From Myxococcota bacterium (GTDB taxonomy: Bacteria > Myxococcota > Myxococcia > Myxococcales > Myxococcaceae), in the NCBI GenBank assembly GCA_048498275.1, contig JBEHYH010000001.1:4876-68875 (forward strand): a DNA stretch of 64,000 nucleotides, written 5' to 3'. How positions within the stretch are numbered: position 1 is the stretch's first letter; the number at the start of each line of letters is the position of its first letter. Below the pieces are notes generated by a model that saw only the letters and a list, made by a program, of their open reading frames with translations, had not been told where the DNA came from and made no database searches. Shown one piece after another: positions 24,267-41,254 of this stretch. The position numbers were made by a program, and so were the translations under genes.

Positions 24267-24325
24267 AGCGCAACTCTACCGAGTTGAGGCTGGGCGTGGT
24301 CGTCCACTCATTTCCAGGAACATCC

Positions 24326-25468
24326 ATGCACATCAAATTCACCGCTCTGCGGAGTGATCTGTCGTCGTGTTTTCCCGAGCGCCAACACGTCATCGACGGT
24401 GCGCTCGCTGCTGTGCTTGCGAGAGAGCACGTGTTGTTGCTCGGCCCTCCAGGTACTGCAAAGTCGGCGCTGGTACGCGCCATCGCAAGTGCGTTCGGGG
24501 GCAGCTACTTCGAGCGACTGCTGACGAAGTTCTCAACGCCGGAGGAGTTGTTCGGCCCGGTGTCGCTGAAGGGGCTTGAGGCTGACAAGTTCTCGCGCAT
24601 CACGAAGGGCATGTTGCCGGAAGTGGAGTTCGCCTTCGTCGATGAGGTCTTCAAGGCCAACAGCGCGATTCTGAACTCGTTCCTCACGTTAGTGAATGAG
24701 CGTCTCTTCCACAACGACTCGACGCCGATGCAGGTGCCGCTGGTGTCGATGTTCGGCGCGTCGAATGAGCTGCCTGAAGGTCGCGAGCTGGAGGCCCTCT
24801 TCGACCGCTTCGCGCTGCGCTTCGACGTGCAGTACCTCCTGCGGCCCCAGCATCTGAAGGACGTGCTGACGTCGCCGGAACCGAAGCTGGTGTCGCGGTT
24901 GGACATGAAGACGCTCCGCACGGCGCAGGCAGAGGTCGCGAAGGTGAAGGTCACCGACGCCACCGTCGAAGCGCTCATCGCCATTCGTGACGCGGCGAAG
25001 GCCGAGGGCATCATCGTCAGCGACAGGCGTTGGAAGAAGTCGCTGCGACTCGTGCAGGCCGCCGCGTGGTTGGCGGGCGAGAAGCAGACCTCGCCTGAAG
25101 ACCTCACGCTGCTGACGGACGCGCTGTGGCGCGAGCCGAAGGAGCGCTCCAAGGTGGCGAAGCTGGTGGGTCGACTCGCGGACCCGGTGGCGACGCAGGC
25201 CACGGAGATTCTCGATGCTGCGCGAGAGACGGCCGCCAAGGTGACGTCACTCAAGACGGGCGACCGGAAGACGTACCTCGCGCAGGCCGCACAGTCGCTC
25301 GAGGAGTTCCGCGCCCAGCAGGCGAAGCTGACGAAGCTGGAGAAGAACGCCGGCCAACGGGCGAAGGCCGTCATCGCTGATGCCGTCGCAGAGGTGACGT
25401 CGCTGCACGCCGAGTTGGCCCGTACGGTCAGCAACGGCCTTGGCCTGGGCATGAGGGCCGTGAAGTGA
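24326..25468 (+). CDS. AAA+ ATPase, MoxR/CobS-like
   Basis: ATG 24326 after AGGAAC. Walker A LLLGPPGTAKS, Walker B FAFVDEVFKAN, sensor ..FGASNELPE. Helical C-terminal region. Confidence 0.8.
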   Translation: MHIKFTALRSDLSSCFPERQHVIDGALAAVLAREHVLLLGPPGTAKSALVRAIASAFGGSYFERLLTKFSTPEELFGPVSLKGLEADKFSRITKGMLPEVEFAFVDEVFKANSAILNSFLTLVNERLFHNDSTPMQVPLVSMFGASNELPEGRELEALFDRFALRFDVQYLLRPQHLKDVLTSPEPKLVSRLDMKTLRTAQAEVAKVKVTDATVEALIAIRDAAKAEGIIVSDRRWKKSLRLVQAAAWLAGEKQTSPEDLTLLTDALWREPKERSKVAKLVGRLADPVATQATEILDAARETAAKVTSLKTGDRKTYLAQAAQSLEEFRAQQAKLTKLEKNAGQRAKAVIADAVAEVTSLHAELARTVSNGLGLGMRAVK

Positions 25469-26724
25469 AGCGGTTCCTCTTCGACGTGCCGCGGTGGCAC
25501 GTCTTCCTTCACCGCGAGGCCCGCGGACTCCCACCCGTCGAAGACAACGACTCACCGCACCTCAAGCTGGAGGACGAGCTGTTCGACCGCCTCTACGCGG
25601 GCGGCAGCGAACGAATCGATGTCGCCGATGCCACCGACTGGAAAGCGTGGGCCGAGAAGCTGCACTCGATGTGCACCGAGCTCCCGACCTTCTCGCGGCT
25701 GGCCCAGGAGTGCCTCGGTGATGCCGATGCTTCGGCACTCGCCGTCGAGAAGCTGTTGGAGACGTTGAAACCGCACATGCAGCAGAAAGCCCAGGACGTG
25801 CAGCCGCCGACACTGCGACGGGCCGTCACCAGCGCGTGCGACAAAGCGTCGGTCGCCATCGAAGTGCACCGTGAAGCCAGTGAAGGTCTCGCCGGCGTCG
25901 GCTTCGGAAGCAGCACGCACCTCGGCGACAAGAAGTCTGGCAGCCCTGCCCAGCGTCTCTCGTCACGCCTGAAGAACGATGACCGGCTCCGTCGCATCGC
26001 GCTGCTGGCGGGCAAGCTGAAGCGCATCGCGCTTACGAAGCAGAAGGCGAAGGTGCGGCACGGTGCTGACGAAGTCACCGACGTCGAACTCGGCTCCAGC
26101 GTCTCCCGATTGTTGCCGTCGGAGCTGATGAAGCTGGCGCACCCGAAGCTGCGGCTCCCGCTGCTGGCGTCACTCACTGAAGGCAAGGCCATGCAGTACC
26201 GCCTCGAAGGCAACGCGTCGCTGGGCCGTGGCCCGCTGGTGGTGTGTCTCGACAAGTCCGGCAGCATGGATGGCGAGCGAGACATCTGGGCCACGGCTGT
26301 GGCGCTGGCGCTTCTCGAGGTCGCGCAACGTCAACGACGCGCCTTCGCGATGTTGGCCTTCGACGGCATCGTCAAACACGAGGCTGTTGTCGACCCCGGC
26401 GGGCAGCTCCCCGAAGACGCGCTCTTCGTGGCGTGCACCGGTGGCACCAACATCACCGGCGTCATTCACCGCGCACTCGAGGTCATCGAAGAGAGCCACG
26501 GCGCGATGAAGAAGGCCGACATTGTGCTGGTGACAGACGGTGGCAGCGACACGTCAGCCGCCCCCGCCGTCAAGCATCGCGCGGCGGAGTTGGGCGTCAC
26601 CATCTTCGGGCTGGGCATCGGAGTTGAAACAGCCTTGCTGATGCACTGGTGCGACGAAGCGCACGCCGTCACCCGCCTCGACACGGCTGACGAGGCCGTG
26701 GCTGAGAGCGTCTTTACCCTCTGA
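25465..26724 (+). CDS. von Willebrand factor A (vWA) domain protein, CobT/ViaA-like
   Basis: GTGA overlap with the AAA+ gene. C-terminal vWA with MIDAS motif VCLDKSGSM, ..GGTNI.. and ..IVLVTDG. Confidence 0.8.
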   Translation: MKRFLFDVPRWHVFLHREARGLPPVEDNDSPHLKLEDELFDRLYAGGSERIDVADATDWKAWAEKLHSMCTELPTFSRLAQECLGDADASALAVEKLLETLKPHMQQKAQDVQPPTLRRAVTSACDKASVAIEVHREASEGLAGVGFGSSTHLGDKKSGSPAQRLSSRLKNDDRLRRIALLAGKLKRIALTKQKAKVRHGADEVTDVELGSSVSRLLPSELMKLAHPKLRLPLLASLTEGKAMQYRLEGNASLGRGPLVVCLDKSGSMDGERDIWATAVALALLEVAQRQRRAFAMLAFDGIVKHEAVVDPGGQLPEDALFVACTGGTNITGVIHRALEVIEESHGAMKKADIVLVTDGGSDTSAAPAVKHRAAELGVTIFGLGIGVETALLMHWCDEAHAVTRLDTADEAVAESVFTL

Positions 26725-26907
26725 CTCGAAGGCCACCATGAATTGGAAGCAAGTCGCCTCGGCCATCCTCAGCGCCGTCGCGTGGTTCCTGGAGAATTAT
26801 CCGACGCGCAGAAAGCGCTGACCCACCACAACACGCAGCACCGGCACGGCCCTCGTCACGCATCTCGCGTGGCGGGGGCTTTGTCGTTTCAACGCAAGGA
26901 GAAGTAC

Positions 26908-27711
26908 ATGGATGAAGTTTCGAAGAAGAAGCTGTACGCGCTGCTGTCGGCCCCGTTTCCGGAGTCGTGCATCCAGCGAACCGAGGGCAAGCAGACGGGC
27001 CGTGGCTACGACACCACCGGCATCGCGTACCAATTCATCGTCAACCGCCTCAACGAGGTGCTGGGAATCGGCGGCTTTCGCGTGCACCGCGAGGTGACGG
27101 TGAAGCCAATTCAGCGCGGCAACGGGAAGGCAGCGTTCGAGGCCATCTGTGACCTGACGCTGGAACTGGGCGCGTGGGTCGACGGGTGCTTCAAGACCTT
27201 CGCCGAGGCCGTGGCGGATGGTGGCCACGTCTCCAACAGCGAGAGCGACGCACGCAAGGGCGCGTACACGAATGCCTTCAAGAAGGCGGCAGCGTTCCAC
27301 GGCGTCGGCAAGCAGGCCTATGAGGGCACGCTGGACGACGACAACCTCCCCGAGGACGCGCCACACTCGGTGCCCGCGACTCGCGCCGCGTCGACTTCGA
27401 GTCAGCCGGTGATGACAGTGGTGAAGGCTCCGCTGCCGACGCCGCCTGCAGAGGCACCGCCCGCGGGCTACGTGAAGTCTCCGCCGCCGGTGCAGCAGGA
27501 GCGCAACCGACTTTCCTCGAAGCAGCTGGCGGCCATCTGGAGCATCGCGCGGAAGCAGAGCTTCGAGACGTCGACCTTCCGCAACCAGGTGAAGCAGCGC
27601 TTCGGGGCACAGCTGGAGTTCCTCACCCGTCAGCAGGCGTCGCAGCTCATCGACTCGCTCAACGCGCAGCTGAACTCCGCTGAAGCGCCGTCGCAGGAAG
27701 GTGCTGCGTGA
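26908..27711 (+). CDS. Rad52/Rad22-family single-strand annealing protein
   Basis: AAGGAGAAG RBS before ATG 26908. GYDTTGIAYQFIVNRLNEVLGIGGF...DARKGAYTNAFKKAAAFHGVGKQAY matches the Rad52-type SSAP core. Low-complexity Pro-rich middle region. Confidence 0.75.
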   Translation: MDEVSKKKLYALLSAPFPESCIQRTEGKQTGRGYDTTGIAYQFIVNRLNEVLGIGGFRVHREVTVKPIQRGNGKAAFEAICDLTLELGAWVDGCFKTFAEAVADGGHVSNSESDARKGAYTNAFKKAAAFHGVGKQAYEGTLDDDNLPEDAPHSVPATRAASTSSQPVMTVVKAPLPTPPAEAPPAGYVKSPPPVQQERNRLSSKQLAAIWSIARKQSFETSTFRNQVKQRFGAQLEFLTRQQASQLIDSLNAQLNSAEAPSQEGAA

Positions 27712-28511
27712 CGGCCCGCGAGACAGACGGGCTCTTCGTCTCCATCTCGCAGCTGAAGCTGTGGCAGCAGTGCCCGAAGAAGCACGAGTACCGCTACGTG
27801 CGCGGCGTGGAGCCGGAGTTTGTGCCGATGGCGCTGGCCTTTGGCTCAGCGTTCCACGCCGCGCTTGCGCTGCACTACGAGGCGCTGCTGCGCGGTGAAG
27901 TCGCTCCTGAATCCGAAGTGAAGGAGCGATTCATCGACACGCTCAACATCGCGAAGCGCGGGCCGGTGCCGCTGCAACACGACGAGGAAGAAGACGGCCC
28001 CTTCGAATTAGTCGAGGCGAAGGGCCTTCAGATGCTCGACGTCACCCTCGGGCACCCGTCAGCGCGGCCGGAGAAGGTGCTGGCCGTCGAGAGGAAGTTC
28101 ATCGTGCCGCTTCACGACGTCGAGACCGGCGAAGTCCTCGACGTGCAACTGCTGGGCGTCATCGACCTCGTCGTCGAAGAAGACGGTCACCGCGTGCTGG
28201 TGGAACACAAGACGAGCGCGAAGAAGTACTCGATGGACCAGCTCAACTTCGACACGCAGCTCTCCGCATACAGCTTCGCGGCGGAGATGATGCAGTGGGG
28301 AGAAGTCGGGCTGCGCTTCTCGGTGACGACGAAGACGAAGTCACCGCAGGTGCAGCTCGAAGATGTCCGTCGTGATGAAGGCGACATGACGGACTTTCTT
28401 CGCGTGGCAGCGGGCGTGTTGAAGGCCGTCGATGCGGGCATCAGCTTCCCGGTGCGCGGCTGGAGCTGCCGCACGTGCCCGTACCGCAAGCGCTGCGAGG
28501 CCGAGCGATGA
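27708..28511 (+). CDS. PD-(D/E)XK exonuclease, Cas4/RecB-like with Cys cluster
   Basis: 4-nt overlap with the SSAP gene. GVIDLVVEE...VEHKTS (D-E-K core), QL.AY motif, and four Cys (WQQC...CRTCPYRKRC) as in Cas4/AddB Fe-S nucleases. Confidence 0.8.
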   Translation: MTARETDGLFVSISQLKLWQQCPKKHEYRYVRGVEPEFVPMALAFGSAFHAALALHYEALLRGEVAPESEVKERFIDTLNIAKRGPVPLQHDEEEDGPFELVEAKGLQMLDVTLGHPSARPEKVLAVERKFIVPLHDVETGEVLDVQLLGVIDLVVEEDGHRVLVEHKTSAKKYSMDQLNFDTQLSAYSFAAEMMQWGEVGLRFSVTTKTKSPQVQLEDVRRDEGDMTDFLRVAAGVLKAVDAGISFPVRGWSCRTCPYRKRCEAER

Positions 28512-30179: not shown

Positions 30180-30944
30180 ATGAAGCTCGTTTTCGTGAGC
30201 GCACTCGTCGTCGCGCTGGCGGGTTGTTCATCCGCTTCACAAGGAGAACCCGGGCCGCAAGGACCGAAGGGCGATGTCGGTCCAGTCGGCCCGCAAGGCG
30301 CGAAGGGAGACAAAGGCGACACCGGTGAACGCGGTGCTCAAGGCGTCGCAGGTCAGCAGGGGCCGGCTGGTATTCAAGGACCGCAAGGGCTCACCGGCGC
30401 GATCGGTCCTGCTGGAGCCACCGGCACTCAGGGTCCAGTTGGAGCCCAAGGAGCGCAAGGTATTCAAGGCGTCGCTGGACCAGCTGGCGCAGCCGGCGCG
30501 ACAGGTCCTCAAGGGCCTGCCGGTCTGAATGCACAGCGTGCGTTCAACTCCAGTGGCGCTGCCGTTGGGTCGGTGTTGTTCGACCACAACGAAAACATGA
30601 AGGTCTGGGTTGATGCATGGGGCTGCTTCAGTGATGTAAGCGACAGCGGCATCCTGTTCGCGACCAACGATGTATTGGTCTACTACGCGGATTCTGCGTG
30701 CTCAGGTCCTGCCTACTACCGGGGCATCACCATGAGCTTCAACTCGTATCGCTGCCTCGCCGGGAAGTTCAACAAGACCTACCGAGTTACTCGGTTTGCG
30801 TCTGCCGCTTCCGGAGTTTCCACGCAGTACGCATGGAATGGCAGCAACTGCACGATGGTCGCGCAAGGAAACACGAACTATCCGATGGAAGAAGTGTTGA
30901 ACTACAACGCAACTACTTCGGAGACTCGGATCGGCGAACAGTAG
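30180..30944 (+). CDS. Collagen-triple-helix-repeat lipoprotein with Cys-containing globular C-terminal domain
   Basis: MKLVFVSALVVALAGC lipobox. 31 uninterrupted G-X-Y triplets (30243-30524). C-terminal ~140 aa with 6 Cys. Confidence 0.8.
   Translation: MKLVFVSALVVALAGCSSASQGEPGPQGPKGDVGPVGPQGAKGDKGDTGERGAQGVAGQQGPAGIQGPQGLTGAIGPAGATGTQGPVGAQGAQGIQGVAGPAGAAGATGPQGPAGLNAQRAFNSSGAAVGSVLFDHNENMKVWVDAWGCFSDVSDSGILFATNDVLVYYADSACSGPAYYRGITMSFNSYRCLAGKFNKTYRVTRFASAASGVSTQYAWNGSNCTMVAQGNTNYPMEEVLNYNATTSETRIGEQ
30243..30524 (+). repeat. Collagen-like (G-X-Y)31 coding repeat
   Basis: GEP GPQ GPK GDV ... GPQ GPA G, read directly from the translation. Confidence 0.9.
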
Positions 30945-31043
30945 CGGCAAACGAGGCGGCAAAGACGTTCCGTGTCCTCCTCGGGCGAAGTCAACAAGAG
31001 AGAAGCTCATTCGGTTTACCCTCCCAGATTCGGCGCTCACGCT

Positions 31044-31628
31044 ATGAATGCCGACGTGCGACCGCTTTCTCGCTCGGAGAACATGGCCCGCATCAAGGGC
31101 ACCGACACGTTACCAGAGGTGACGTTGCGCAAGCTCCTGTGGGCGGCAGGCATTCGATACCGAACGAACTTCCGCACTCCAGGCGGAAAGGCTGACATCG
31201 CGCTGCCGTCCAAGCGCTTCGCGGTCTTCGTTGATGGGTGCTTTTGGCACGGGTGCCCAGAGCATTATGTGAAGCCGCGAAGCCGGAGTTCCTACTGGGA
31301 CGCCAAGCTCACTGAAAATGTCGAACGCGATCGACGACAGACACAAAAGCTCCTCGACGAAGACTGGAACTTCATCAGGGTCTGGGAGCACGAAGTCTCC
31401 GAAGACGCGCCTGAAGTCGCACAACGCGTTCTGAATCAGCTCAAGAGCGGAAGGCCCGCCACCTGGCCTCGGTGGCGGGTCGCTGTCGTCGAGTTCATTG
31501 ACCCCTTCGGCGAACGCGAGCGACGTCATCTCAAAAACCTTCTAGGGAACGCTGGACGGATAGAGGAGGGGCCACGCATCACTCTCAAAATCGGACGCGT
31601 CAAACGCTCGTCAACCGACACAACGTAG
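31044..31628 (+). CDS. vsr: Very-short-patch repair endonuclease
   Basis: SRSENMARIKGTDT.PE..LR..L...G.RYR, PG.ADI, FVDGCFWHGC, YW..K...N..RD and W.FIRVWEHE match E. coli Vsr. Carries a ~50-aa C-terminal extension. Confidence 0.85.
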   Translation: MNADVRPLSRSENMARIKGTDTLPEVTLRKLLWAAGIRYRTNFRTPGGKADIALPSKRFAVFVDGCFWHGCPEHYVKPRSRSSYWDAKLTENVERDRRQTQKLLDEDWNFIRVWEHEVSEDAPEVAQRVLNQLKSGRPATWPRWRVAVVEFIDPFGERERRHLKNLLGNAGRIEEGPRITLKIGRVKRSSTDTT

Positions 31629-31745
31629 ACCTGGCGGTCAAAGTGTCGCTTGGAGTATAAACCACGACCGACGATCCCACGAAGCTCACCAAACATGCCT
31701 TCTCCGTCTGAAATGCCAGCGCACACACATTCAAAAAAGGACGCG

Positions 31746-32756
31746 ATGAGTCATCGATTCGACTTCATCGACTTGTTCGCCGGCATAGGAGGATTCCATC
31801 GTGCGCTCGCGAAGGCAGGAGGCCGTTGCGTCTTCGCTTCCGAATGGGACCCATGGGCGCAACAAACCTACGAAGCCAATTTCGGTATCGTGCCAGCCGG
31901 CGACATTACAAAAGTCGAACCGGATTCGATTCCCTCACACGACATCCTCTGCGGTGGCTTTCCATGTCAGCCGTTTAGTATCGCAGGGGTTTCGAAAGCA
32001 AATGCGCTTGGGCGCAGCCATGGATTCGAGCACGCAACGCAGGGAACGCTATTCTTTAACGTGGCAAAAATTATCGCCCGCCAAAGGCCACGCGCATTCA
32101 TCTTAGAGAACGTGAAGAACCTGAAAAGTCACGACAAGGGTCGTACGTTTCAAGTCATTTCAAACACATTGACCGAGCTGGGCTACCACTTTGACCATCG
32201 CATTCTCGATGCCCGTCACTGGGTGCCACAACACAGAGAACGAGTATTTATCGTCGGCTTTCGAGATAGCGCTGACTTCGCCCGCTATAAATGGCCGACT
32301 CTACCTAAGAAACAACTGCGGTTCAGCGACATTCTCGAAGAACACGTCCCACCCAAATACACCCTTTCCGATAAGCTGTGGGACTACTTACAGAGGTACG
32401 CCGCCAAGCATAAAGCTGCTGGCAATGGTTTCGGGTACGGACTCGTCGATTTGAATGGTGTATCGCGCACTTTGAGTGCTCGATACTACAAGGATGGGTC
32501 TGAGATACTGATACCGCAACGAGGTAAAAACCCGCGCAGAATGACGCCTCGCGAATGTGCGCGATTGATGGGCTATCCAGATAAAATGAACATCGTATGC
32601 AGCGACACGCGTGCCTACAAACAGTTCGGAAACTCAGTGGTTGTCCCGGTTGTCTCGGCATTGGCCCAAAGTGTCGTTGCGGCGATGACTAGGCCTTCTC
32701 GCGGGATAAAATCACCGCATCAACACGAGCTTTTCTCGTCCTCGAGGGCTGCATAA
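31746..32756 (+). CDS. dcm: DNA (cytosine-5)-methyltransferase
   Basis: Motif I DLFAGIGGF, motif IV GGFPCQPFS, motif VI ENVKNL, motif VIII QHRERVFIVG, motif X GNSVVVPV. AAGGA RBS before ATG 31746 (alternative ATG 31695). Confidence 0.9.
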   Translation: MSHRFDFIDLFAGIGGFHRALAKAGGRCVFASEWDPWAQQTYEANFGIVPAGDITKVEPDSIPSHDILCGGFPCQPFSIAGVSKANALGRSHGFEHATQGTLFFNVAKIIARQRPRAFILENVKNLKSHDKGRTFQVISNTLTELGYHFDHRILDARHWVPQHRERVFIVGFRDSADFARYKWPTLPKKQLRFSDILEEHVPPKYTLSDKLWDYLQRYAAKHKAAGNGFGYGLVDLNGVSRTLSARYYKDGSEILIPQRGKNPRRMTPRECARLMGYPDKMNIVCSDTRAYKQFGNSVVVPVVSALAQSVVAAMTRPSRGIKSPHQHELFSSSRAA

Positions 32757-32778
32757 GCGCACAGAAGGGGCGGGGACG

Positions 32779-34671
32779 ATGCGGGGTAAGGACAGAGCGA
32801 CATGGGCACTAGATCAACGCGGGAAAGCCGTAGTTCTACGCCACGGACGCTCGACGATACGCGTTGACCCAATAAAAATCTGGGAAGCGCAATTTGAAGA
32901 TCGAACTAAAATCGATGGTCTAGTCGTCACAAGGCCATCGAGTGATTTACCGCAGCTTGACTTCTCTCGCTTTCCGCTTGACGTGTCGCTCAAGGCTCAG
33001 GGTTCCCTCAATGCTGGCTTCTCTCTAGCTTGGGCAACTCTCGACTCGGAGATTGACATCCGCGATTCTCAAATCGTCGAAAATCGGCGATGGTTTATGC
33101 TCGACCGAGAGACGCTCGATTCTACAATATCGTCCTTAGCTACGCGCTCAATCATCTGCCCAGGTCCAATAACATTGGGTCAACTCGTGTGGCTACGAGC
33201 CAACCAGAACGGAGCCACCAAGGTCATCGACGCGACTACCAATGCGGATCCGCTGCTAGCGCTGCAACAACCAAAGGCGACAAGAACGCTACACAAAACG
33301 ACGCTTTTCCCTTACCAATCCGTTGGCGTCGCTTTTCTAAACCGCGTCGCGAAGGAATCAATCGGGTGCATTCTCGCCGACGAAATGGGTTTAGGAAAAA
33401 CGATACAACTCATTGGACTATTGACCGATGAGAATAAGCGTGGGGCAACAACAAGCCTCATCGTGTGTCCCGCGACTATCTTGGAAAACTGGCGACGAGA
33501 GCTTGAAGAGTTCGCGCCGCAGCTAAAGCTATTTACTCACATCGGAACGGACCGCCCGGGAACCGCCAAGCACTTTCACGGTTTCGATATCATTCTGACG
33601 ACATTCGAAACCGCCGTTCGCGACGAGCCCATGTTGGCGAATGTGCGCTGGAATATTTTGATTGTCGATGAGGCGCAGTATCTCAAGACACCAACCGCCC
33701 AGCGCACGCTCTCAATCAAAAGACTCTCTCGCCGAGTTACTGTAGCAGCAACAGGCACTCCTGTTGAGAACAGGTTAACCGACTTATGGTCAATTGCGGA
33801 CCTAGTGCTACCGGGGCTCCTCGGTTCTCAGCGTAGCTTTGAGTCTGAATTCGACGACACCAAGCAAGACGCGGAGAGACTCGCACCCATTGTTGCTCCG
33901 CTCATGCTTCGTCGGAGAGTCGCAGAGGTTGCAACAGATCTGCCCCCTCGAATTGACATCCCGCAGCCGATCGTTATGACACAGCGGCTTGCTGTTCAAT
34001 ACGACGCGATTCGAACCGCGGTATTCGAAGAATACGGGAACCGCGCGACTCTCGTTTCCCTAGGAAAGTTGCGACAGTTCTGCGCTCACCCCAAACTCGT
34101 CGACATCGATTGGTCCGATCTCGCCGTAGGAATGCCAAAATATCAAAGATTGACTGAGATTCTCGAAGAACTCTTCTCTTCCAATGAAAAGGCGCTAATC
34201 TTCTGCTCCTTTACTGAGATGATCGATATCATGATGGGGGACCTGTCGCGTCGATTTCCGAACGCACACCGTGGATTCATCGATGGTCGGGTGGACATTT
34301 CAATGCGACAACCAATCGTCGATAACTTCACACGCCACAACGGGTTTGGCTTTCTTATCCTCAATCCCAGGGCAGCCGGCGTCGGCCTAAACATCACAAC
34401 GGCAAATCATGTAATCCACTACACACCAGAGTGGAATCCTGCCGTCGAAGATCAAGCCTCAGCGCGAGCTTACAGGCGAAAGCAAACAAAACCCGTTACC
34501 ATTCACCATCTATTTTTTGCGAGTTCCGTTGAGGAAGTGATGACAGCTCGGCTGTTGGCCAAACGACAGCTGTCGACTGGGGCCGCTGTCGGCAATCAAG
34601 GCTCCGCGGACGCCAGCGATATCGCTCGGGCACTTGCGACATCTCCTTTGGCACATGGAACATTCGAATGA
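32779..34671 (+). CDS. SNF2-family SF2 ATPase/translocase
   Basis: LADEMGLGKT (motif I), DEAQYLK (motif II), TGTPVEN (motif III). C-terminal helicase motifs ..AAGVGLN.T.ANHVIHY.PEWNPA.EDQA..RA.R. ~190-aa unknown N-terminal region. Confidence 0.85.
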   Translation: MRGKDRATWALDQRGKAVVLRHGRSTIRVDPIKIWEAQFEDRTKIDGLVVTRPSSDLPQLDFSRFPLDVSLKAQGSLNAGFSLAWATLDSEIDIRDSQIVENRRWFMLDRETLDSTISSLATRSIICPGPITLGQLVWLRANQNGATKVIDATTNADPLLALQQPKATRTLHKTTLFPYQSVGVAFLNRVAKESIGCILADEMGLGKTIQLIGLLTDENKRGATTSLIVCPATILENWRRELEEFAPQLKLFTHIGTDRPGTAKHFHGFDIILTTFETAVRDEPMLANVRWNILIVDEAQYLKTPTAQRTLSIKRLSRRVTVAATGTPVENRLTDLWSIADLVLPGLLGSQRSFESEFDDTKQDAERLAPIVAPLMLRRRVAEVATDLPPRIDIPQPIVMTQRLAVQYDAIRTAVFEEYGNRATLVSLGKLRQFCAHPKLVDIDWSDLAVGMPKYQRLTEILEELFSSNEKALIFCSFTEMIDIMMGDLSRRFPNAHRGFIDGRVDISMRQPIVDNFTRHNGFGFLILNPRAAGVGLNITTANHVIHYTPEWNPAVEDQASARAYRRKQTKPVTIHHLFFASSVEEVMTARLLAKRQLSTGAAVGNQGSADASDIARALATSPLAHGTFE

Positions 34672-35105
34672 CACTCGAATCCACGCGCATAATCAAAACC
34701 CTCAGCGCGAACGATGTCGGCGAAACAGGCTCACATCAAGCCGGCATTCTGGTACCGAAATCTCCAGAGATCCTCAGCTATTTCCCCAAGCTAGACCATC
34801 ACTTAAAGAATCCACGAAATACGCTCACTTTCTTTGAGCCGAATGCCATTACAAAATGGGATTTCGAATTCATCTACTACAACAACAAGTTTTTTGATGG
34901 AACCCGGAACGAGTATCGACTCACCGGAATGACAAAGTATCTCCGGGCAACAAACGCAAAGCGCGACGATGCTTTGGAATTCTATCGGGACGCTGATGGT
35001 CGCCGAACCATATGCCTGCGGCGTGCGGAAGCACAGACACACGACGACGACGGGACATTACGAATCAGTGGCGGTTGGAAAATCATTCGACTCTCCGGGA
35101 GATGA
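34668..35105 (+). CDS. Stand-alone B3-like DNA-binding protein (EcoRII N-terminal effector-domain-like)
   Basis: ATGA overlap on both sides. KTLSANDVGETGSHQAGILVPK resembles the EcoRII-N/B3 pseudobarrel signature. 145 aa. Confidence 0.55.
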   Translation: MTLESTRIIKTLSANDVGETGSHQAGILVPKSPEILSYFPKLDHHLKNPRNTLTFFEPNAITKWDFEFIYYNNKFFDGTRNEYRLTGMTKYLRATNAKRDDALEFYRDADGRRTICLRRAEAQTHDDDGTLRISGGWKIIRLSGR

Positions 35106-36739
35106 AATTGGCCAAAAAAGCGACCGACAAATACGTAGAATGTGCTCCTGATCCGGAACGAGTCGTCGAGGGCTTGCGGGACACAGGATATCAGCTGGAA
35201 ACGGCAGTGGCCGATATCGTCGACAACAGCATCGCTGCGACAGCAAAGCGTATCGACGTGAACATGAACATGGACCCTAAAGGGAACGTGCTTGTGTCTA
35301 TTGCCGACAATGGAATCGGCATGAGTCGAGACGGACTAATCAATGCGCTGAGATACGGATCCAAAAGACGCGCAGACCCATCCAGTCTAGGAAAATTTGG
35401 TCTCGGATTAAAAACCGCCTCGACGGCTTTCTCACGTCGAATAGTACTCATTTCGCGCGAAAAGAAATCTGGAGCGGTGCTTCGCGCGGTCTGGGACTTA
35501 GATGTCGTCGCGGATAAGCACGACTGGTTAATAGAGATAGACGACGCCAGGAAAGAAGAGATTTTAATTCTCGATCAGACTGCCGAAGGCGGCACAGGCA
35601 CGGTCGTCATATGGGATCGCGTTGATCGACTCCTCTCTGAATACAAAAACCAAAACGGCGTTCCCGCCCGAAAAGCCCTGACGCGTCACGTCGATGGACT
35701 GCGACAGCATCTGGCTATGACTTATCAGCGATTCTTGGACCCCAAAGACAAGCGAGCTCCAACAATCAAACTGCGATTGCAAGGCGAAGCAGTTGAACCA
35801 TGGGACCCGTTTTGTTTATCGGAAACGAAGGAGCCGATTGAAAACAAAACAATCCCTCTGGAGCTACCCGACGGCACAAAAACATCATTTTCGATTAGGG
35901 CTTTTGTGTTGCCTCGAAAAGAGGACTTCACCGATCAGGATGCAGCAAAGCTCGCGCGGATACAAAACGATATGCAAGGTATATATGTCTACCGTGAGAA
36001 TCGAATGATCCACGGCCCAGACTGGATGGACATGTACCGAAAAGAACCTCACGTCACATTGTGTCGCGTCGAGCTTTCATTCGACCACAAATCCGACGAA
36101 GCGTTCCAGGTCGATATCAAGAAATCGCGAATTCTACTCGCGAACGAGCTCTACGAATGGCTCCGAGACAAATTCCTCCCTGGCCCACGACGCGAGGCTG
36201 AATCTCGGTCTCGAAAAGGCCAAGCGGCCAGAGCCAGTGGGCTTGGAGCGCTGCTACACACCGCATCAAACAATGCAATTCACAGCAAAGCGGATGCTCT
36301 GCAAACTGCCAAGTTGCAAGAGTACAGCGCTAAGACTGGTGAGGCCACGATCCAGAATCGCGGCGGCAAAGCGAAAATAAAAATCAAATTGGTTGATTCC
36401 GTAACCCCCGGTCAGGTTCATGTTCAAACTGTCCCTGAAATCATAAACGGGCTACTTTTCGAGCCCGCCTACATCAAGGGGGCGAACGGCGAGAGCAATC
36501 AAGGCGTCCAAATTGCCAGCAGTCATCCTTACTACCATAAGGTTTACCTTCCCAATCGCTCGTCTGGCGTCACCATTCAGGGCTTGGATTCCTTACTTTG
36601 GGCTTTGGGTGCTGCCGAACTCGGATGTGTCAGTGACGAAACCAAACGAAAGTTTGAAGAAATGCGTTTCGAGGTCTCGAGACTACTACGACAGCTCGTC
36701 GATGACATGCCCGACCCGATCGATGACGCCGAGCAATGA
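35102..36739 (+). CDS. GHKL-superfamily ATPase (HATPase_c_3 / MORC-like)
   Basis: Bergerat-fold motifs: N-box AVADIVDNSIAA, G1 ADNGIGMS, G2 LGKFGLGLKTAS. 545 aa with a long C-terminal region. Confidence 0.8.
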   Translation: MKLAKKATDKYVECAPDPERVVEGLRDTGYQLETAVADIVDNSIAATAKRIDVNMNMDPKGNVLVSIADNGIGMSRDGLINALRYGSKRRADPSSLGKFGLGLKTASTAFSRRIVLISREKKSGAVLRAVWDLDVVADKHDWLIEIDDARKEEILILDQTAEGGTGTVVIWDRVDRLLSEYKNQNGVPARKALTRHVDGLRQHLAMTYQRFLDPKDKRAPTIKLRLQGEAVEPWDPFCLSETKEPIENKTIPLELPDGTKTSFSIRAFVLPRKEDFTDQDAAKLARIQNDMQGIYVYRENRMIHGPDWMDMYRKEPHVTLCRVELSFDHKSDEAFQVDIKKSRILLANELYEWLRDKFLPGPRREAESRSRKGQAARASGLGALLHTASNNAIHSKADALQTAKLQEYSAKTGEATIQNRGGKAKIKIKLVDSVTPGQVHVQTVPEIINGLLFEPAYIKGANGESNQGVQIASSHPYYHKVYLPNRSSGVTIQGLDSLLWALGAAELGCVSDETKRKFEEMRFEVSRLLRQLVDDMPDPIDDAEQ

Positions 36740-37650
36740 TTGACGAAAGAGCACTAGAGCAGCGCCTGTGCGGCCGTTTTGGTTTGGCGATCAGCGCCGG
36801 TCGCCGTGGCCACGGCCTAGATGAGTGTGTGTACTTTCGAGTGGTCGGTCACGGTATCGACAAACCAAATGGTTTCGCAATCGAACTGACCGGAGAATGG
36901 CGCTCACTTGAAGCCAAGTTCGTTCCGGATTCGTTTGCACGATCGCTGATGCAGACTGTCGCAGCATCTACCGAACTGCGACGTAGAGAATTTCTCTCTC
37001 TGTCAGATGCTTTTCAGAGCACGGGGATTCGCAGTTCAGTACGGATTGACGACCGTCCGATTAACGCGAGAGATACCTTGACGCAGCCTTGGTCGAAGTT
37101 CCAACTCGCTTGCCATCGACTTACCGACAAATCGGATGAACAGCGCGATGCGGAGGAACTTGGCGGAGCATGCTTGGCACTAGTTCTTTCGCTACTCCCG
37201 ATCGAGGAGTTGGTTTCACTGCCGTCGGAAGAGTTTCTCGAGCTTGAGCCGGGCACCAACCAAATAGACGGGTTGCCAGAGGGAGCGGTAACCAAAATAA
37301 CTGTTAATCGGTATGAACGCCGACCAGCCAATCGCGCGGCAGCTATCGCGGCCCACGGGACGCAGTGTGCAGCGTGCGGTTTTGACTTCTTTAGATTCTA
37401 CGGAGATCTGGGAGACGGCTTTATTGAAATACACCATCGAACGCCAGTATCGCTGATAGGGCCCAACTACATCATCGACCCAGTACGCGACTTAGTGCCG
37501 TTGTGCGCGAACTGCCACCAGATGGTGCATCGAAGATCTCCGCCGGTTGAACCAGAACAATTGAGAGAACTCTTGCTCGCGCGTCAAAAGTTCCCCAAGA
37601 CAACCGCATCTGGCAGTCCCGATGACGAGACCGCAGGGCGTCTGGAGTAG
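36736..37650 (+). CDS. HNH endonuclease with uncharacterised N-terminal domain
   Basis: ATGA overlap with the upstream stop. C-terminal ..NRYERR...R..A....G..C.ACGFDF...FIEIHHRTPVS...DLVPLCANCHQMVHR (HNH, McrA-like). Confidence 0.8.
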   Translation: MIDERALEQRLCGRFGLAISAGRRGHGLDECVYFRVVGHGIDKPNGFAIELTGEWRSLEAKFVPDSFARSLMQTVAASTELRRREFLSLSDAFQSTGIRSSVRIDDRPINARDTLTQPWSKFQLACHRLTDKSDEQRDAEELGGACLALVLSLLPIEELVSLPSEEFLELEPGTNQIDGLPEGAVTKITVNRYERRPANRAAAIAAHGTQCAACGFDFFRFYGDLGDGFIEIHHRTPVSLIGPNYIIDPVRDLVPLCANCHQMVHRRSPPVEPEQLRELLLARQKFPKTTASGSPDDETAGRLE

Positions 37651-37776
37651 TTCTCGCGTGGATTCCACTTAACAAAGTCGTCTGCCGCTCAATGGTCAGC
37701 CATCAAAAACGAAAGAGGCGTTAAGCTTGCAGCTGTCAGGAACAAGGTAGGAGCTTCCGACATGCACTGCTTCACG

Positions 37777-39582
37777 CTACCTATGCTGTTCTTGATGAAG
37801 TTCAATACCAAGGAACCGCAGTTCGCCATCGAGGTTAAACCGAGGCGTCCACACCGCATCAACAGAACCTACTGGCACCACATCGGGATCCGTTGCGCTG
37901 AACACGAACTGAACAGGATCTTCCAATCTGCTCGACATTTTGTGGAACTGCGCAACATACGCACTTAAGTCTGCTGAACTCAGTTCGTGCTGACGGGGGG
38001 CATCGAGAATGAGCAGCTTCGGGTGGTTGCCATTCATGGCAAGTGAGGCTTCGACCAACGCTGCGTGGTAAGACAGGATAAATCGCGTGCGAGTACTGCC
38101 GCTTGGAGACGACTTGGAGGTGAAGGGCTCTCCATTCACAACAAGCCGCAATTCCTCATCGAACTCGATCTCCGTCGGCAAATTTGGCGTATTGAGTACG
38201 CCGCACCATTTCACAAAGCTAGTCGCCAGATGCTGCCGAGCATCGAGTAGTCGGCTCGTTTCCCTACGAGCTCCGCGTGTTGGGCGAAGTTCATCGACCG
38301 AATCTCTCGCTCGCGCTTCTTTGGTAAGAAGCACTTCAAGTTGCTTCTGCTCACGTGCAATTCGCTCGAGGCGATCGAGACGAACGTGGATATCGGACAA
38401 TTCTCGGGTCGCAAGTTGTAGAAAACTGACGATTCCACCACCTCCGCGCTGCTCAAGCTCTTGGCTCTTCGCCTCGCTTGCTTCATGAACAAGGCGCTCT
38501 GCTGCGGCTAGTTGGTCGGTTAACACAACAAGCACTCTTTCCACCTCACCGCTACCTACTTCGAAGTCCTTAAGCTGGTCTTTTAGATAGAGAACCCGCC
38601 TGCCAAACGAGTCTTCATTCCTGAAGAACTGGCAGGATTGGTTTCCACAGAGCTTTCGGAAAATGTCAGCGGCAACTTCGTTCTGCTCTAGAGCACTGAG
38701 CTCGGTGCCCATCTCGGCGCGGTAGTCACCCAGTTGTTTTTTTCGTTTCTTGGCACTCGCCAACTTGAGAGCAAGCTCATCTCTCTGTTGCGCACTTTCA
38801 CGGACGCGAACGTCAAGCGCTGATTCTGACTGAAGCATCGTCTGAATAGTAGATTGCGCACGGGCGATCTCAGGCTCCAGCACGGCCTTACGCTCTTGCA
38901 GGCGCTCGACGGCATCGTCTCCACGATCCTCGCCCAGCTCACGCCTGAGCGCCTCAAGACCTCGGCGCTTGAATGCGATCTGCTCTTGTATGCCAGCCTG
39001 CTCCGTCTTCGCCTCTCTGTATTTACCCTTGTCTACTGGTCGGTATTTCGCAGGAAGATCCAATAACCAACGAAGAACTTCCTCGCGTTGATCTCTCACG
39101 AATTTGTGGGTTTCGAACGGCACATATTCGGAAGCCCAACCAACATCCTGATCGACCAAGAACATTGGTCCCACAACGCTCATGTACGGAGGAACTTGCT
39201 CGCCCGATACCGATGAAAGCGTTCGTAGCGCGATACCAATCTTTGGTAGCAGCCATGACGAAAAGTCACTTTCATTGGAAAATGAAACAACATGACCCTT
39301 TTGGTCGCTCACAGCAACGACGAGACCCGATTCAAACTGACGTACAATTCTGTACTCTGTTGCGTCCGCCACGATTTCAACGACGACAGCGCTGCACTTC
39401 TCGCGAACCAGCGGTGGAAGTTCGACCGGATGACCAAGACCGTAGACAAGCGCCTTCAGGAGCGGCGTCTTCCCAGCACCGTTTCGTCCAAGAAGGAGCG
39501 TGCTGGCCCTACCAAACGACAATGAGCCGCTAGTCCAACCGACTTCACCACGAGGTAGCAACTCCAGCGAACGCAGCGTCAT
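37777..39582 (-). CDS. SMC/Rad50-like ABC ATPase (ABC-3C-type ATPase component)
   Basis: N-terminal Walker A LLLGRNGAGKT, ~300-aa coiled coil, C-terminal signature-like SPSGST and Walker B KLLILDAP. 4-nt overlap with the upstream gene. Confidence 0.8.
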   Translation of the reverse strand: MTLRSLELLPRGEVGWTSGSLSFGRASTLLLGRNGAGKTPLLKALVYGLGHPVELPPLVREKCSAVVVEIVADATEYRIVRQFESGLVVAVSDQKGHVVSFSNESDFSSWLLPKIGIALRTLSSVSGEQVPPYMSVVGPMFLVDQDVGWASEYVPFETHKFVRDQREEVLRWLLDLPAKYRPVDKGKYREAKTEQAGIQEQIAFKRRGLEALRRELGEDRGDDAVERLQERKAVLEPEIARAQSTIQTMLQSESALDVRVRESAQQRDELALKLASAKKRKKQLGDYRAEMGTELSALEQNEVAADIFRKLCGNQSCQFFRNEDSFGRRVLYLKDQLKDFEVGSGEVERVLVVLTDQLAAAERLVHEASEAKSQELEQRGGGGIVSFLQLATRELSDIHVRLDRLERIAREQKQLEVLLTKEARARDSVDELRPTRGARRETSRLLDARQHLATSFVKWCGVLNTPNLPTEIEFDEELRLVVNGEPFTSKSSPSGSTRTRFILSYHAALVEASLAMNGNHPKLLILDAPRQHELSSADLSAYVAQFHKMSSRLEDPVQFVFSATDPDVVPVGSVDAVWTPRFNLDGELRFLGIELHQEQHR

Positions 39583-40058
39583 AAGAGCTCCAAGCCACCT
39601 TGGTCTACTGCGCGATAGGCTCGCTCAAGCTCACGAACAAGGACCCCAGATTCATCAGCAGAGAGAGTCAGCTTCCTCACAAGCGTTTTCCCTGAGTCAG
39701 CGATATAGATGGTTCTCGTTGGCGCTTCTTTCACGATGGCCAGACCTACGTTCTCCAGGAACACCAGTGCCTCCGCGCAACGCCTCCGCAGAGGAACAGA
39801 CCATTGAATGTCAGTGCGTACAAACCGAAGGTCCGCGAACTTTCTCATGAGAGTCCCAAGCGCCCAAGTTGCGACGTCGGAGGTCGGTACCCCGTTACGA
39901 CGAGCCTTGGCGATCACCAAGATTGTCAACGCGAGCAGGGGAGCATGGAACAGCCCTTCAACACCAGCACTTGCAGCTCGCGACAGCCCCTGCATGTTCA
40001 GCCGAAGTTGAACGTTTGCAGTTGTAGCCTCCGCAGTAATCTCTTCGAGAGTTCTCAC
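39579..40058 (-). CDS. Small helical protein, position of the ABC-3C middle component
   Basis: 159 aa with no catalytic motif. 4-nt overlaps with both neighbours, implying translational coupling. Confidence 0.6.
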   Translation of the reverse strand: MRTLEEITAEATTANVQLRLNMQGLSRAASAGVEGLFHAPLLALTILVIAKARRNGVPTSDVATWALGTLMRKFADLRFVRTDIQWSVPLRRRCAEALVFLENVGLAIVKEAPTRTIYIADSGKTLVRKLTLSADESGVLVRELERAYRAVDQGGLELL

Positions 40059-41254
40059 GATTCAGCCTCAACGGCGACAGCCAGCATTAGGCCAAAGACT
40101 AAATCCTTCGTGAGTGGCTCGCTCGACGTTAATATTGTGCTGTACTTGGTGGCGAGATTGGAAGCCTCCTGTCCGAGTCCATCGAACGATAGATGACCAT
40201 CGGAATGAACCTTCAGTGCACTTGCGCACGAATTTTTAAGCGATATCTGGTCGAGGGCGTTGACAACATGTCGTTGGCGCACCCACCACGCATCCCATGC
40301 CGTCTTGAGTTGACATAGCTCCGGTATGACCGATTCCGAAACCTTACTTCTCCTGCAGAGGCGATGGAGCCGAGAGAGCGCTACGACGCCTTCTCTTCCC
40401 GACACCTGTAACTCACGATAGCCTTCGGAAGAGAGGCTCAAGATGCGAAGCACATCTTCGAGAACAAGCCCCTTTGAACTCCTCAGTTCACTATTCGACG
40501 CCGGCAGCTCCGGAAGTTTCCGGTGCGACTTCTCGCGAACGACCGCAACAAGCTCTGCGCCAATCTTCTGCGTCTCTGACTGAGTGAGATCAACCTCCGA
40601 CATCTGATAGATACGCCCGCCAAGAAGAACGCGACAATCGTTTATGTTCGCAATTTTTCCGAACGCATCTTGCACATAGAGCCGCCTGAGAAATTCGAAT
40701 ATGTGGTCCGACTTTATCGACGGAAACGCTGCCGGTAGCACAGCGACCAGTTCATTGAACGAGTCCGCTGGAGCGCCAACAAGTGCGACAGAATCACTGA
40801 CAGATCGCACCGCATCCAGCAAATCAGTGAACTCTTTCGTCACGCCGGCATCGGTAACGAACACGAAGTGTTCACATCGCGCACCGAACTTTTGTACGTG
40901 ATCAAAAAGACGCCCAAAAATTGAGTCAGCGTCAGCTATCGGTGCCGCTACGGCACTCTTGGACTTCCCCTTTCGAGTTCTGACGCCGAAAAACTCGTTG
41001 ACCCTCCAAGGCCCTTGCGCCCCACCCCGGGTCTTAACTTGGTGAAAACGATAGGCCGATACCCCAGCGGACTCGATCACGTAGTCGTCGTGCCATTCAC
41101 AATAGACGCACGCGACCTTGGTATCATCTAGAACTTCAAGCGCCCCAGCTGCCGCCTGATGATACTGGAATTCGAACGCGTTCCCCGTACCTGCACCCAC
41201 CTGCTCACGCGGCTCAACCTCGTGAAGACCTACCCCTCCCTCTTGGTTGGTCAC
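40055..41254 (-). CDS. DUF4297/Cap4-nuclease-like PD-(D/E)XK effector with helical C-terminal domain (ABC-3C effector position)
   Basis: GTG 41254 after GGAG. GNAFEFQYHQ...VYCEWHDDYVIE...YRFHQVKT matches my recollection of the DUF4297 dsDNA-nuclease signature. Confidence 0.65.
   Translation of the reverse strand: MTNQEGGVGLHEVEPREQVGAGTGNAFEFQYHQAAAGALEVLDDTKVACVYCEWHDDYVIESAGVSAYRFHQVKTRGGAQGPWRVNEFFGVRTRKGKSKSAVAAPIADADSIFGRLFDHVQKFGARCEHFVFVTDAGVTKEFTDLLDAVRSVSDSVALVGAPADSFNELVAVLPAAFPSIKSDHIFEFLRRLYVQDAFGKIANINDCRVLLGGRIYQMSEVDLTQSETQKIGAELVAVVREKSHRKLPELPASNSELRSSKGLVLEDVLRILSLSSEGYRELQVSGREGVVALSRLHRLCRRSKVSESVIPELCQLKTAWDAWWVRQRHVVNALDQISLKNSCASALKVHSDGHLSFDGLGQEASNLATKYSTILTSSEPLTKDLVFGLMLAVAVEAES

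Follow-up and report, generated by a model that had tools for sequence, protein, structure and literature searches.

What kind of system is encoded by six consecutive genes in which a Vsr-Dcm pair is joined to two ATPases, a DNA reader and an HNH protein? The window analyzed here, a stretch of 64,000 nucleotides from a Myxococcota bacterium (contig JBEHYH010000001.1), carries at 31044-37650 on the + strand six intact co-directional open reading frames in the order Vsr, Dcm-type C5-methyltransferase, SNF2, EcoRII-N/B3, GHKL and HNH. A preliminary description made from the DNA letters had proposed exactly these genes and domains; the reading frames were found at the positions given there, and profile searches upheld all six domain assignments, each with a Pfam score above the gathering score. 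ATGA stop/start overlaps were read at 34668, where the B3 start overlaps the SNF2 stop, and at 35102 and 36736. They had been taken to imply stoichiometric co-translation; translational coupling is indicated by the overlaps, but stoichiometry is not proven by them.

The Vsr very-short-patch-repair endonuclease (194 aa, 31044-31628) matched Pfam Vsr with 3.9e-23 and NCBIfam TIGR00632 with 118 bits (cutoff 97.85), and it is 37% identical to Vsr of E. coli K-12. Vsr is the usual companion of Dcm and repairs T:G mismatches arising by deamination of 5-methylcytosine (5mC). In the window, vsr is located upstream of dcm, whereas related loci nearly always show dcm followed by vsr. For the C5-cytosine methyltransferase (336 aa, 31746-32756), the ATG at 31746 with AAGGA ahead of it was taken as the start; longer alternatives start at 31650 and 31695. 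The protein matched Pfam DNA_methylase (1.4e-90) and the NCBIfam Dcm subfamily PRK10458 (381 bits), and it is 49% identical to E. coli Dcm across the parts for catalysis and target recognition, the stretch between motifs VIII and IX among them. From homology, CCWGG is the predicted target of the methylase. This motif was only slightly depleted in the window (observed/expected 0.74), a ratio that says little about the target.

The stand-alone B3 DNA-binding protein (145 aa, 34668-35105) was identified as EcoRII-N-like by Pfam EcoRII-N (5.5e-17) and by PDB entries 3hqf (1e-9) and 1na6 (8e-9). All seven base-contacting residues of EcoRII-N are kept: N15, H23, Q24, Y71, R80, E82, and R84 correspond to EcoRII N28, H36, Q37, Y85, R94, E96, and R98, and they are conserved in nearly all B3 homologues that have a Dcm-like methyltransferase as partner. 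EcoRII-N no longer binds once the inner C carries a C5-methyl group, and 5mC on either strand suffices (PMC2770665). The 145-aa protein is therefore predicted, from its contact residues, to be a reader of unmethylated CCWGG. In all eight loci with a different C5-methyltransferase (34-36% identity), His occupies the position equivalent to EcoRII R94, and the C-arm loop is extended; this His is absent from B3 homologues whose cognate methyltransferase is Dcm-like. A B3 base-contact residue changes when the methylase type changes, and this co-variation of reader and methylase probably represents a single evolutionary event.

Conservation was analyzed in 49 informative loci, in which the MORC gene (the GHKL gene of the window) was flanked by 5 kb or more on either side; they came from Proteobacteria, Verrucomicrobia, Firmicutes, Actinobacteria, Bacteroidetes, Spirochaetes, and one archaeon. 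SNF2, HNH, and C5-methyltransferase genes accompanied MORC in 49/49 loci each, B3 in 42/49, and Vsr in 36/49. Gene junctions overlap or are shorter than 30 nt across taxa. An arrangement whose genes turn up as a group in dozens of unrelated genomes goes far beyond coincidence. Some related loci contain a 377-aa protein in place of B3. Identity values of MORC correlated with those of HNH at 0.85, of B3 at 0.79, of SNF2 at 0.65, and of the methyltransferase at 0.34. Judged by these sequence comparisons, SNF2, B3, MORC, and HNH are a tightly coupled four-gene core, conserved across phyla, whose members co-evolve among themselves more than with the methylase. Physical interaction of the four proteins is predicted, on the basis of gene linkage only.

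An EcoRII-C-type endonuclease gene adjoins dcm/vsr in 12 of 80 related loci, which ties the four-gene module to CCWGG systems; on Rhizobium plasmid pRspBT03a, such a gene (8e-70) lies beside both dcm-vsr and the module. The module might hence be an accessory to an EcoRII-type (EcoRII-C, PD-(D/E)XK) endonuclease that, for instance, processes or degrades the DNA once a first cut has been made, and the window copy a partial or inactive remnant that has lost the endonuclease. The 'HNH or EcoRII-like nucleases' listed among the operon contents by Iyer et al. 2008 (PMC2292703) would also fit. We regard this explanation as unlikely: the other 68 loci, the window among them, contain no EcoRII-C gene at E<=1e-3, none of the six window genes is disrupted and their catalytic residues are invariant, and HNH in every informative locus means that the module is never without a nuclease of its own. 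The analogy to EcoRII drawn in the preliminary description is supported by the seven base contacts, the identity to Dcm, and the EcoRII-C neighbors. Its statement that the PD-(D/E)XK half is 'replaced' by an HNH protein and ATPases is only partly right because some genomes add the four-gene module to a complete EcoRII-type system.

The SNF2-family ATPase/translocase (630 aa, 32779-34671) matched Pfam SNF2-rel_dom (3.2e-53) and Helicase_C (2.6e-17). Its motor region resembles ZorD (PADLOC 3e-124) and DpdE (1.7e-83), in both cases below the NCBIfam equivalog cutoffs; a Pfam search of the N-terminal region of about 170 aa (residues 1-174) gave no match. The GHKL protein (545 aa, 35102-36739) matched Pfam HATPase_c_3 (9e-28) and contains the MORC S5 motif GhXhhpXXRhl as GIYVYRENRMI (aa 293-303). 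In a profile comparison with the PDB, MORC2 (1.9e-9) ranked ahead of MutL (2e-5), and the top Foldseek matches of an AF2 model (pLDDT 68) were MORC3, MORC2, SMCHD1, and MORC4 (1e-15 to 1e-13). By motif, sequence, and modeled fold, the protein is a true prokaryotic MORC with a GHKL+S5 ATPase, as the earlier label 'MORC-like' had suggested. It shares the GHKL+S5 fold and the S5 motif with the ATPase modules of eukaryotic MORC2, MORC3, MORC4, and SMCHD1. Unlike eukaryotic MORCs, it lacks CW, coiled-coil, and chromatin-reader domains, and its gene shares an operon with those for a nuclease, a motor, and a DNA reader. Its C-terminal extension has a long helix (~362-401) followed by a beta-rich and helical region. 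Furthermore, its N-box (ADIVDN) shows an invariant Asp where eukaryotic MORCs and other GHKLs carry the catalytic Glu; ATP turnover may therefore be slow or have a regulatory role.

The HNH nuclease protein (304 aa, 36736-37650) consists of an alpha/beta N-domain (1-155), a linker, and a C-terminal McrA-type HNH domain (~195-270) matching Pfam HNH (1.1e-4, 22.8 bits vs. a cutoff of 21.4) and McrA (PDB 6ghc, 5e-4). Across 25 diverse homologues, C211, C214, H233, H234, C257, N259, C260, H261, and H265 do not vary. The AF2 model reached a pLDDT of 80 overall and of ~90 in the N-domain, for which the PDB yielded no significant fold match, the methyl-binding domain of McrA included; this domain is nearly confined to the ~280-aa family of the HNH protein.

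Eukaryotic MORCs are ATP-dependent DNA clamps and compactors. Since the GHKL protein is a bona fide MORC, and its Glu-to-Asp change fits a slow, switch-like ATPase, B3 could load the MORC clamp and the SNF2 motor at unmethylated sites so that foreign DNA is entrapped or compacted and not cut, as in eukaryotic MORC silencing, with HNH minor or nicking. There is little probability in our view that the locus works in this way, given the invariant catalytic His/Asn and zinc-binding Cys residues of HNH, its presence in every informative locus, and the protective methylase that is strictly linked, a feature typical of lethal nuclease activity.

The relation to McrA, the closest solved relative of the HNH domain, and the JGI annotation of homologues as '5-methylcytosine-specific restriction protein A' would suit a modification-dependent (Type IV, McrA-like) system. 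The stimulation of Vsr by MutL in E. coli (literature cited in PMC2292703) would suit a Vsr-partnered repair module in which a MutL-like GHKL, helicase, and nuclease process T:G mismatches, and which would not be classical restriction. Both appear very improbable. The HNH N-domain had no significant match among solved structures, McrA's methyl-binding domain included, and the only recognizable reader is EcoRII-N-like, a type whose binding is blocked by 5mC. A 5mC-dependent nuclease would be suicidal beside a cognate methylase linked in all informative loci, and Vsr is missing from 13 of the 49, so the four-gene module does not depend on it.

We consider it rather likely that the six genes specify an ATP-dependent restriction system belonging to the prokaryotic-MORC class, with methylation as protection and CCWGG as its predicted specificity. 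The methylase would mark the inner C of CCWGG in host DNA, and the B3 protein would bind only unmethylated sites, on incoming DNA. This binding would recruit or license the SNF2 subunit, which would then translocate along double-stranded DNA. Upon ATP binding, MORC would dimerize as a clamp that either traps or loops DNA or gates the nuclease; finally, the HNH subunit, attached via its family-specific N-domain, would cut. The system is real, well conserved, and widespread in bacteria; its restriction function we infer.

Operons combining MORC, SWI2/SNF2, an HNH or EcoRII-like nuclease, VP1/RAV(B3), Dcm, and Vsr were predicted to be restriction-modification systems by Iyer, Abhiman & Aravind 2008 (Biol Direct 3:8, PMC2292703), a prediction more exact than the preliminary description implied when it referred to comparative genomics. 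The component list of their type-2 prokaryotic MORC operons is the same as in the window and nothing essential differs; the S5 motif that defines the family is present in the window MORC, and the locus is, by sequence, a member of this computationally defined class. The literature search found no experimental study of any member of the MORC-SNF2-HNH family, in line with the earlier remark that no mechanism was described for the six-gene architecture. As the layout was predicted from genomes in 2008, the locus is a good experimental target and not a new kind of system. Added here to the class are CCWGG as its predicted specificity, the co-variation of reader and methylase, the 377-aa alternative to B3, and an HNH N-domain specific to the family.

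The EcoRII system (M.EcoRII/Dcm, Vsr, R.EcoRII) shares with the window a Dcm-type methylase, Vsr, and an EcoRII-N-like domain. However, the window lacks the EcoRII-C PD-(D/E)XK catalytic domain, cutting presumably being done by the HNH protein; B3 is a free protein and not an autoinhibitory N-terminal domain; and two ATPases are needed in the predicted mechanism, whereas EcoRII works without ATP. The nearest experimentally studied working analogues are CglI and NgoAVII, in which a B3-like domain recognizes the site, a C5-methylase protects the host, and cleavage needs DNA translocation by a separate SF2 helicase-like ATPase (PMC4267653, PMC4267654, PMC5737866, PMC5861437). They differ in that their B3 domain forms one protein with a nuclease of the PLD family, a DEAD-Z1 protein serves as motor, GHKL/MORC, HNH, and SNF2 are absent, and the target is GCCGC. 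Additionally, the window GHKL is related to MzaB of the candidate defense system Mza (PADLOC 7.9e-49; NCBIfam NF041932, 192 bits), both being part of the prokaryotic MORC radiation that is linked to methylases and SF2 helicases. Its score is far under the MzaB equivalog cutoff of 850, the helicase is SNF2 and not Z1-type, and PADLOC gave no match to MzaA, MzaC, MzaD, or MzaE among the other five window proteins.

The six-gene locus is located within a defense island, beside Lamassu, on an integrated element. As previously described, its G+C content is below that of the flanks (0.62-0.65), with 0.50-0.55 in five genes and 0.59 in Vsr, whose GC3 of 0.69 exceeds that of the five others. The low-G+C block extends to ~41300 and also contains the Lamassu system, on the opposite strand.

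The six genes of the operon were found in the window where the preliminary description had placed them, all on the + strand: vsr at 31044-31628 (Pfam Vsr, 3.9e-23), a C5-methyltransferase gene ending at 32756 with ATG 31746 as its best start (DNA_methylase, 1.4e-90), an SNF2 gene at 32779-34671 (SNF2-rel_dom, 3.2e-53), a gene at 34668-35105 encoding a stand-alone B3 protein of 145 aa (EcoRII-N, 5.5e-17, and no other domain), a GHKL ATPase gene at 35102-36739 (HATPase_c_3, 9e-28; HATPase_c, 9e-8), and a gene at 36736-37650 encoding an HNH protein (Pfam HNH above cutoff). Profile searches were run for the domain assignments; all of them exceeded Pfam's own cutoff, and PADLOC, NCBIfam and PDB sequence searches were concordant. 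The three ATGA stop/start overlaps were seen in the window sequence, and the G+C content of the operon (0.50-0.55 for five genes, 0.59 for vsr) was indeed lower than that of the flanks (0.62-0.65); the low-G+C block extends beyond the operon to about 41300. A scan of positions 30500-38000 yielded fewer promoter-like sites than were found in shuffled sequences, and terminator-like matches in the same region gave no usable operon signal. The GC3 of vsr is 0.69 as compared to 0.54-0.57 in the other five operon genes. Furthermore, vsr precedes dcm here, about 115 nt apart from it, and in nearly all related loci dcm comes first. The history of vsr may differ from that of the other operon genes.

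Systems of this kind had been said to be predicted by comparative genomics, and such a prediction was found in the type 2 MORC operons of Iyer et al. (2008; PMC2292703). These operons encode a SWI2/SNF2 helicase together with HNH or EcoRII-like nucleases, sometimes a VP1/RAV (= B3) protein, and in many cases cytosine methylases and Vsr; they were proposed to be restriction-modification (R-M) systems with the GHKL protein mediating DNA looping. SNF2, HNH, a separate VP1/RAV (B3) protein, cytosine methylase and Vsr are all present in the window, and, judged by its genes alone, the locus is a textbook member of this class. The finding is thus real and was correctly interpreted, but it is no new kind of system, since the operon class was described in 2008; its value is that of a tractable entry to an uncharacterised class. 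The preliminary description had known of no experimentally described mechanism, and our literature searches likewise turned up no experimental study of this architecture and no experimental report of restriction by it. PADLOC-DB v2 holds no model set for the system, which is matched in part by the MzaB model only, and a review of R-M biology from 2025 makes no mention of MORC or GHKL systems.

The GHKL ATPase is a true member of the prokaryotic MORC family. Its DNGIGM (DxGxG) and GKFGLGLK motifs were invariant among 17 MORC homologues, and residues 293-303 (GIYVYRENRMI) match the pattern GhXhhpXXRhl in the S5-fold domain, the motif that defines the MORC family (Iyer et al. 2008; PMC2292703). 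Within it G293, Y297, R298 and R301 were invariant in the homologue alignment. A profile of the 17 homologues retrieved human MORC2 (1.9e-9) from the PDB before MutL (2.2e-5). The AlphaFold model had a pLDDT of 68 with the highest confidence in the GHKL and S5 parts, and an S5-like alpha/beta domain was visible in it; Foldseek returned MORC3, MORC2, SMCHD1 and MORC4 first (1e-15 to 1e-13), with 4e-15 for MORC3 as compared to 2.6e-11 for MutL. Both profile and model place the protein nearer to MORCs than to MutL or other GHKL proteins. The N-box reads ADIVDN: where the catalytic Glu is normally found (E35 in MORC2, E29 in MutL) it has Asp38, invariant in the 17 homologues, and this Asp may lead to slow, switch-like ATP hydrolysis. 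The C-terminus had no Pfam match.

In the HNH protein C211, C214, H233, H234, C257, N259, C260, H261 and H265 were invariant across 25 diverse homologues; these are the zinc-binding and catalytic residues. The N-terminal alpha/beta domain (residues 1-155) was modelled confidently (pLDDT about 90). It had no Pfam match, and a Foldseek search of the PDB gave nothing significant (best E 0.04, YbjN/ARPC2-like noise). The domain is confined almost entirely to the family of HNH proteins of about 280 aa, and we infer that it is a system-specific adaptor domain. A McrA-type Type IV enzyme, defined by an N-terminal 5mC-binding domain and a C-terminal HNH without a cognate methylase, was rejected: no PDB fold matches the N-domain significantly, a cognate methyltransferase is always linked, and McrA (6ghc) aligns with the HNH region alone (residues 181-268). 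The motor region of the SNF2 protein is similar to ZorD and DpdE, far below their equivalog cutoffs, and its residues 1-174 had no Pfam match.

Relatives of the MORC protein number in the thousands. A scan of one genome per species yielded 80 related loci from Proteobacteria, Verrucomicrobia, Firmicutes, Actinobacteria, Bacteroidetes, Spirochaetes and one Methanomassiliicoccales archaeon. Co-occurrence was counted where the MORC gene had 5 kb or more of sequence on either side of it, a condition that left 49 loci. Conservation of the gene neighbourhood, on which the preliminary description had made its reading depend, was borne out: SNF2, HNH and C5-methylase genes accompanied MORC in all 49 loci, B3 in 42 and Vsr in 36, and the complete six-gene set was present in 30. 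The SNF2 gene adjoined the MORC gene in every one of the 49. The order of the core was always SNF2-B3-MORC-HNH or its circular permutation MORC-HNH-SNF2-B3, and its gene junctions were overlapping or shorter than 30 nt almost everywhere (at one locus, L018, SNF2 and B3 are separate genes with a 4-nt overlap), whereas the methylase and Vsr differed between loci in position and strand. For identity to the window proteins, correlations were strong within the four-protein core (0.61-0.85) and weak between core and methylase (0.09-0.47), and the core therefore fits a co-evolving complex able to exchange its methylase. The explanation that the module silences DNA without cleaving it is disfavoured, since the active site of HNH is invariant and the methylase obligatory. 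Eleven full-length matches were located on plasmids, among them conjugative Rhizobium plasmids with the NCBI names 'DEAD/DEAH box helicase', 'EcoRII N-terminal effector-binding domain-containing protein', 'ATP-binding protein' and 'HNH endonuclease'; the system was essentially absent from sequenced phages.

An EcoRII-C-type endonuclease gene was present beside dcm/vsr in 12 of the 80 loci (L003, L004, L007, L011, L020, L025, L026, L038, L039, L040, L044 and L069). On plasmid pRspBT03a of Rhizobium sp. BT03 (locus L082) such a gene, annotated 'type II restriction endonuclease' (8471-9688), adjoins dcm-vsr and the four-gene module. At these loci two different nucleases appear to have a common methylation mark. 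The module could then be an accessory dependent on the EcoRII-C enzyme; this is unlikely, because that enzyme is missing from most loci and the module always comes with a nuclease of its own. In the window, tblastn with an EcoRII-C enzyme as query revealed no such gene at E<=1e-3. EcoRII proper, a Type IIE enzyme, was rejected as well: its EcoRII-N domain has CCWGG base contacts in common with the window B3 protein, but it carries the PD-(D/E)XK domain EcoRII-C in the same polypeptide, whereas the B3 protein consists of EcoRII-N only.

In the EcoRII-N co-crystal the bases of CCTGG are read by N28, H36, Q37, Y85, R94, E96 and R98 (PMC2770665). A phmmer alignment placed N15, H23, Q24, Y71, R80, E82 and R84 of the window B3 protein at these positions, so that all seven base-contact residues are identical. 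Methylation of the inner cytosine at C5 on either strand abolishes EcoRII-N binding (PMC2770665). Furthermore, the window methyltransferase is 49% identical to Dcm of E. coli K-12, with strong similarity across the variable region that separates motifs VIII and IX. Taken jointly, the base contacts, the methyl-sensitivity of EcoRII-N and the similarity to Dcm lead us to predict CCWGG as the site that the system methylates and reads. The ratio of observed to expected CCWGG sites was 0.74 in the window and 0.81 in the operon, an effect too weak to bear on the predicted target. A 5mC-dependent system or a repair system is disfavoured, because the reader is methyl-sensitive, the cognate methylase is linked universally and Vsr is missing from a quarter of the loci.

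Eight loci from a gut-bacterial Lachnospiraceae clade (L051, L062, L063, L065, L070, L071, L074 and L076) carry a different C5-methyltransferase with 34-36% identity and a distinct variable region. At the position that corresponds to EcoRII R94 their B3 proteins carry His instead of Arg, and the C-arm loop is longer by 3-4 residues; this His was not found in any B3 homologue with a Dcm-like cognate methylase. The combination of B3 variant and different methyltransferase implies an altered target sequence. As the eight loci are probably one clade, they count as one co-variation event and not as eight. All 12 loci without B3, each from Firmicutes, encode a conserved protein of about 377 aa directly upstream of SNF2 (6916-8049 in the Butyrivibrio locus L041; homologues in L045, L046, L047, L050, L052, L053, L054, L060, L067, L068 and L078). 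This protein had neither a Pfam nor a PDB sequence match and looks like an alternative, unrelated occupant of the reader slot; the reader position therefore looks modular. The Butyrivibrio locus also encodes, downstream of vsr (14023-15033), a protein of 336 aa that has a NOV_C (DUF3883-like) domain (2.4e-18) and could be an additional linked nuclease or defence component.

Sequence comparison shows the parts list, intact catalytic motifs, a tight linkage that is conserved, and a reader that matches its methylase. With these parts, the operon would operate as a restriction system: Dcm-type methylation would protect the CCWGG sites of the host, and free B3 protein would bind unmethylated sites on incoming DNA and thereby license SNF2 translocation. 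The MORC ATPase would dimerise into a clamp, either to trap or loop the DNA or to gate the nuclease, the HNH protein would cut the DNA, and Vsr would limit C-to-T mutation at methylated sites. The more specific proposal that MORC is an ATP-gated clamp, loaded by B3 on unmethylated DNA and driven by SNF2, which entraps or loops DNA before HNH cleavage, we put forward tentatively and consider rather unlikely. If it were true, the apparently exchangeable reader slot (B3, the B3 variant or the unrelated 377-aa protein) would set specificity, and the operon would be a direct bacterial antecedent of eukaryotic MORC-mediated, methylation-linked silencing of invasive DNA. Prokaryotic MORC ATPases were reportedly proposed in 2008 to be ancestral to the eukaryotic MORC chromatin silencers.

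To our knowledge, a mechanism has not been described for any bacterial MORC system, and we know of no characterised restriction enzyme with such a division of labour among reader, motor, clamp ATPase and nuclease. The family is unusually tractable: the EcoRII-N domain, to which its reader is closely related, has a solved structure. Dcm-type CCWGG methylation is native to laboratory E. coli K-12; as this is the mark predicted here, self/non-self discrimination can be tested with dcm+ and dcm- hosts or DNA. Such a comparison would reveal how a clamp-type GHKL ATPase and an SNF2 translocase work together with a reader and a nuclease that are proteins of their own.

As an analogy, CglI/NgoAVII is the nearest experimentally studied working system, a class that the operon resembles and is no member of. 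There, a B3-like domain is fused to a PLD nuclease in the R subunit, a separate DEAD-Z1 translocase (the H/N subunit) is required, and cleavage depends on communication along the DNA (PMC4267653, PMC4267654, PMC5737866, PMC5861437); in contrast, the window system has a separate reader, an HNH nuclease, an SNF2 motor and an extra MORC protein, and no PLD domain. Mza (MzaABCDE), whose partners include a Z1 helicase, was rejected, as the MzaB match reached 192 bits as compared to a cutoff of 850 and the other five proteins had no PADLOC Mza match. DISARM comprises DrmA (helicase), DrmB (DUF1998) and DrmC/DrmE together with DrmMII and DrmD; the methyltransferase matched the DrmMII model (1.8e-140) and SNF2 matched DrmD weakly (1e-38; NCBIfam 74 bits vs 950), and DISARM was rejected with no DrmA, DrmB or DrmC match. 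Zorya type I, defined by a ZorD equivalog with an Mrr-like nuclease and ZorA, B and C, was rejected too: only the motor region matches ZorD (PADLOC 3e-124 over ZorD positions 428-886; NCBIfam 258 bits vs a cutoff of 1500), and ZorABC are absent.

The operon probably belongs to an integrated element, about 30 kb in size, with a tRNA-Asn gene (13239-13312, +) at its start, the probable left end. Abutting the tRNA gene is a gene for a large serine recombinase (13300-14802, -) that has Resolvase, Recombinase and Zn_ribbon_recom domains; no convincing pair of att-type direct repeats was found near this end, and housekeeping-type genes resume from about 43.9 kb. Cargo of the element includes DUF6744 (22718-23677), a bpMoxR AAA+ ATPase (24284-25468) and a VWA protein (25465-26724), and the MoxR-VWA pair may be another conflict system. 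They are followed by genes for a Rad52/22-like annealing protein (26905-27711) and a PD-(D/E)XK nuclease (27708-28511). Directly upstream of vsr, a predicted lipoprotein with collagen triple-helix repeats is encoded (30180-30944; Pfam Collagen, 9e-17), and its gene marks the boundary of the high-G+C and low-G+C parts of the island. The element further carries a complete Lamassu system (37777-41254, -) directly downstream of the operon. It shares the low-G+C block, is convergent with the HNH gene and consists of LmuB, an SMC-like ATPase (37777-39582, -; PADLOC 2e-118), LmuC (39579-40058, -; 2e-20) and LmuA with a Cap4/DUF4297 nuclease (40055-41254, -; 8e-74). Outside the island, six overlapping 84-nt copies with 62-77% identity form a tandem array of 21/42-nt periodicity (47726-47977), where the G+C content is very high.
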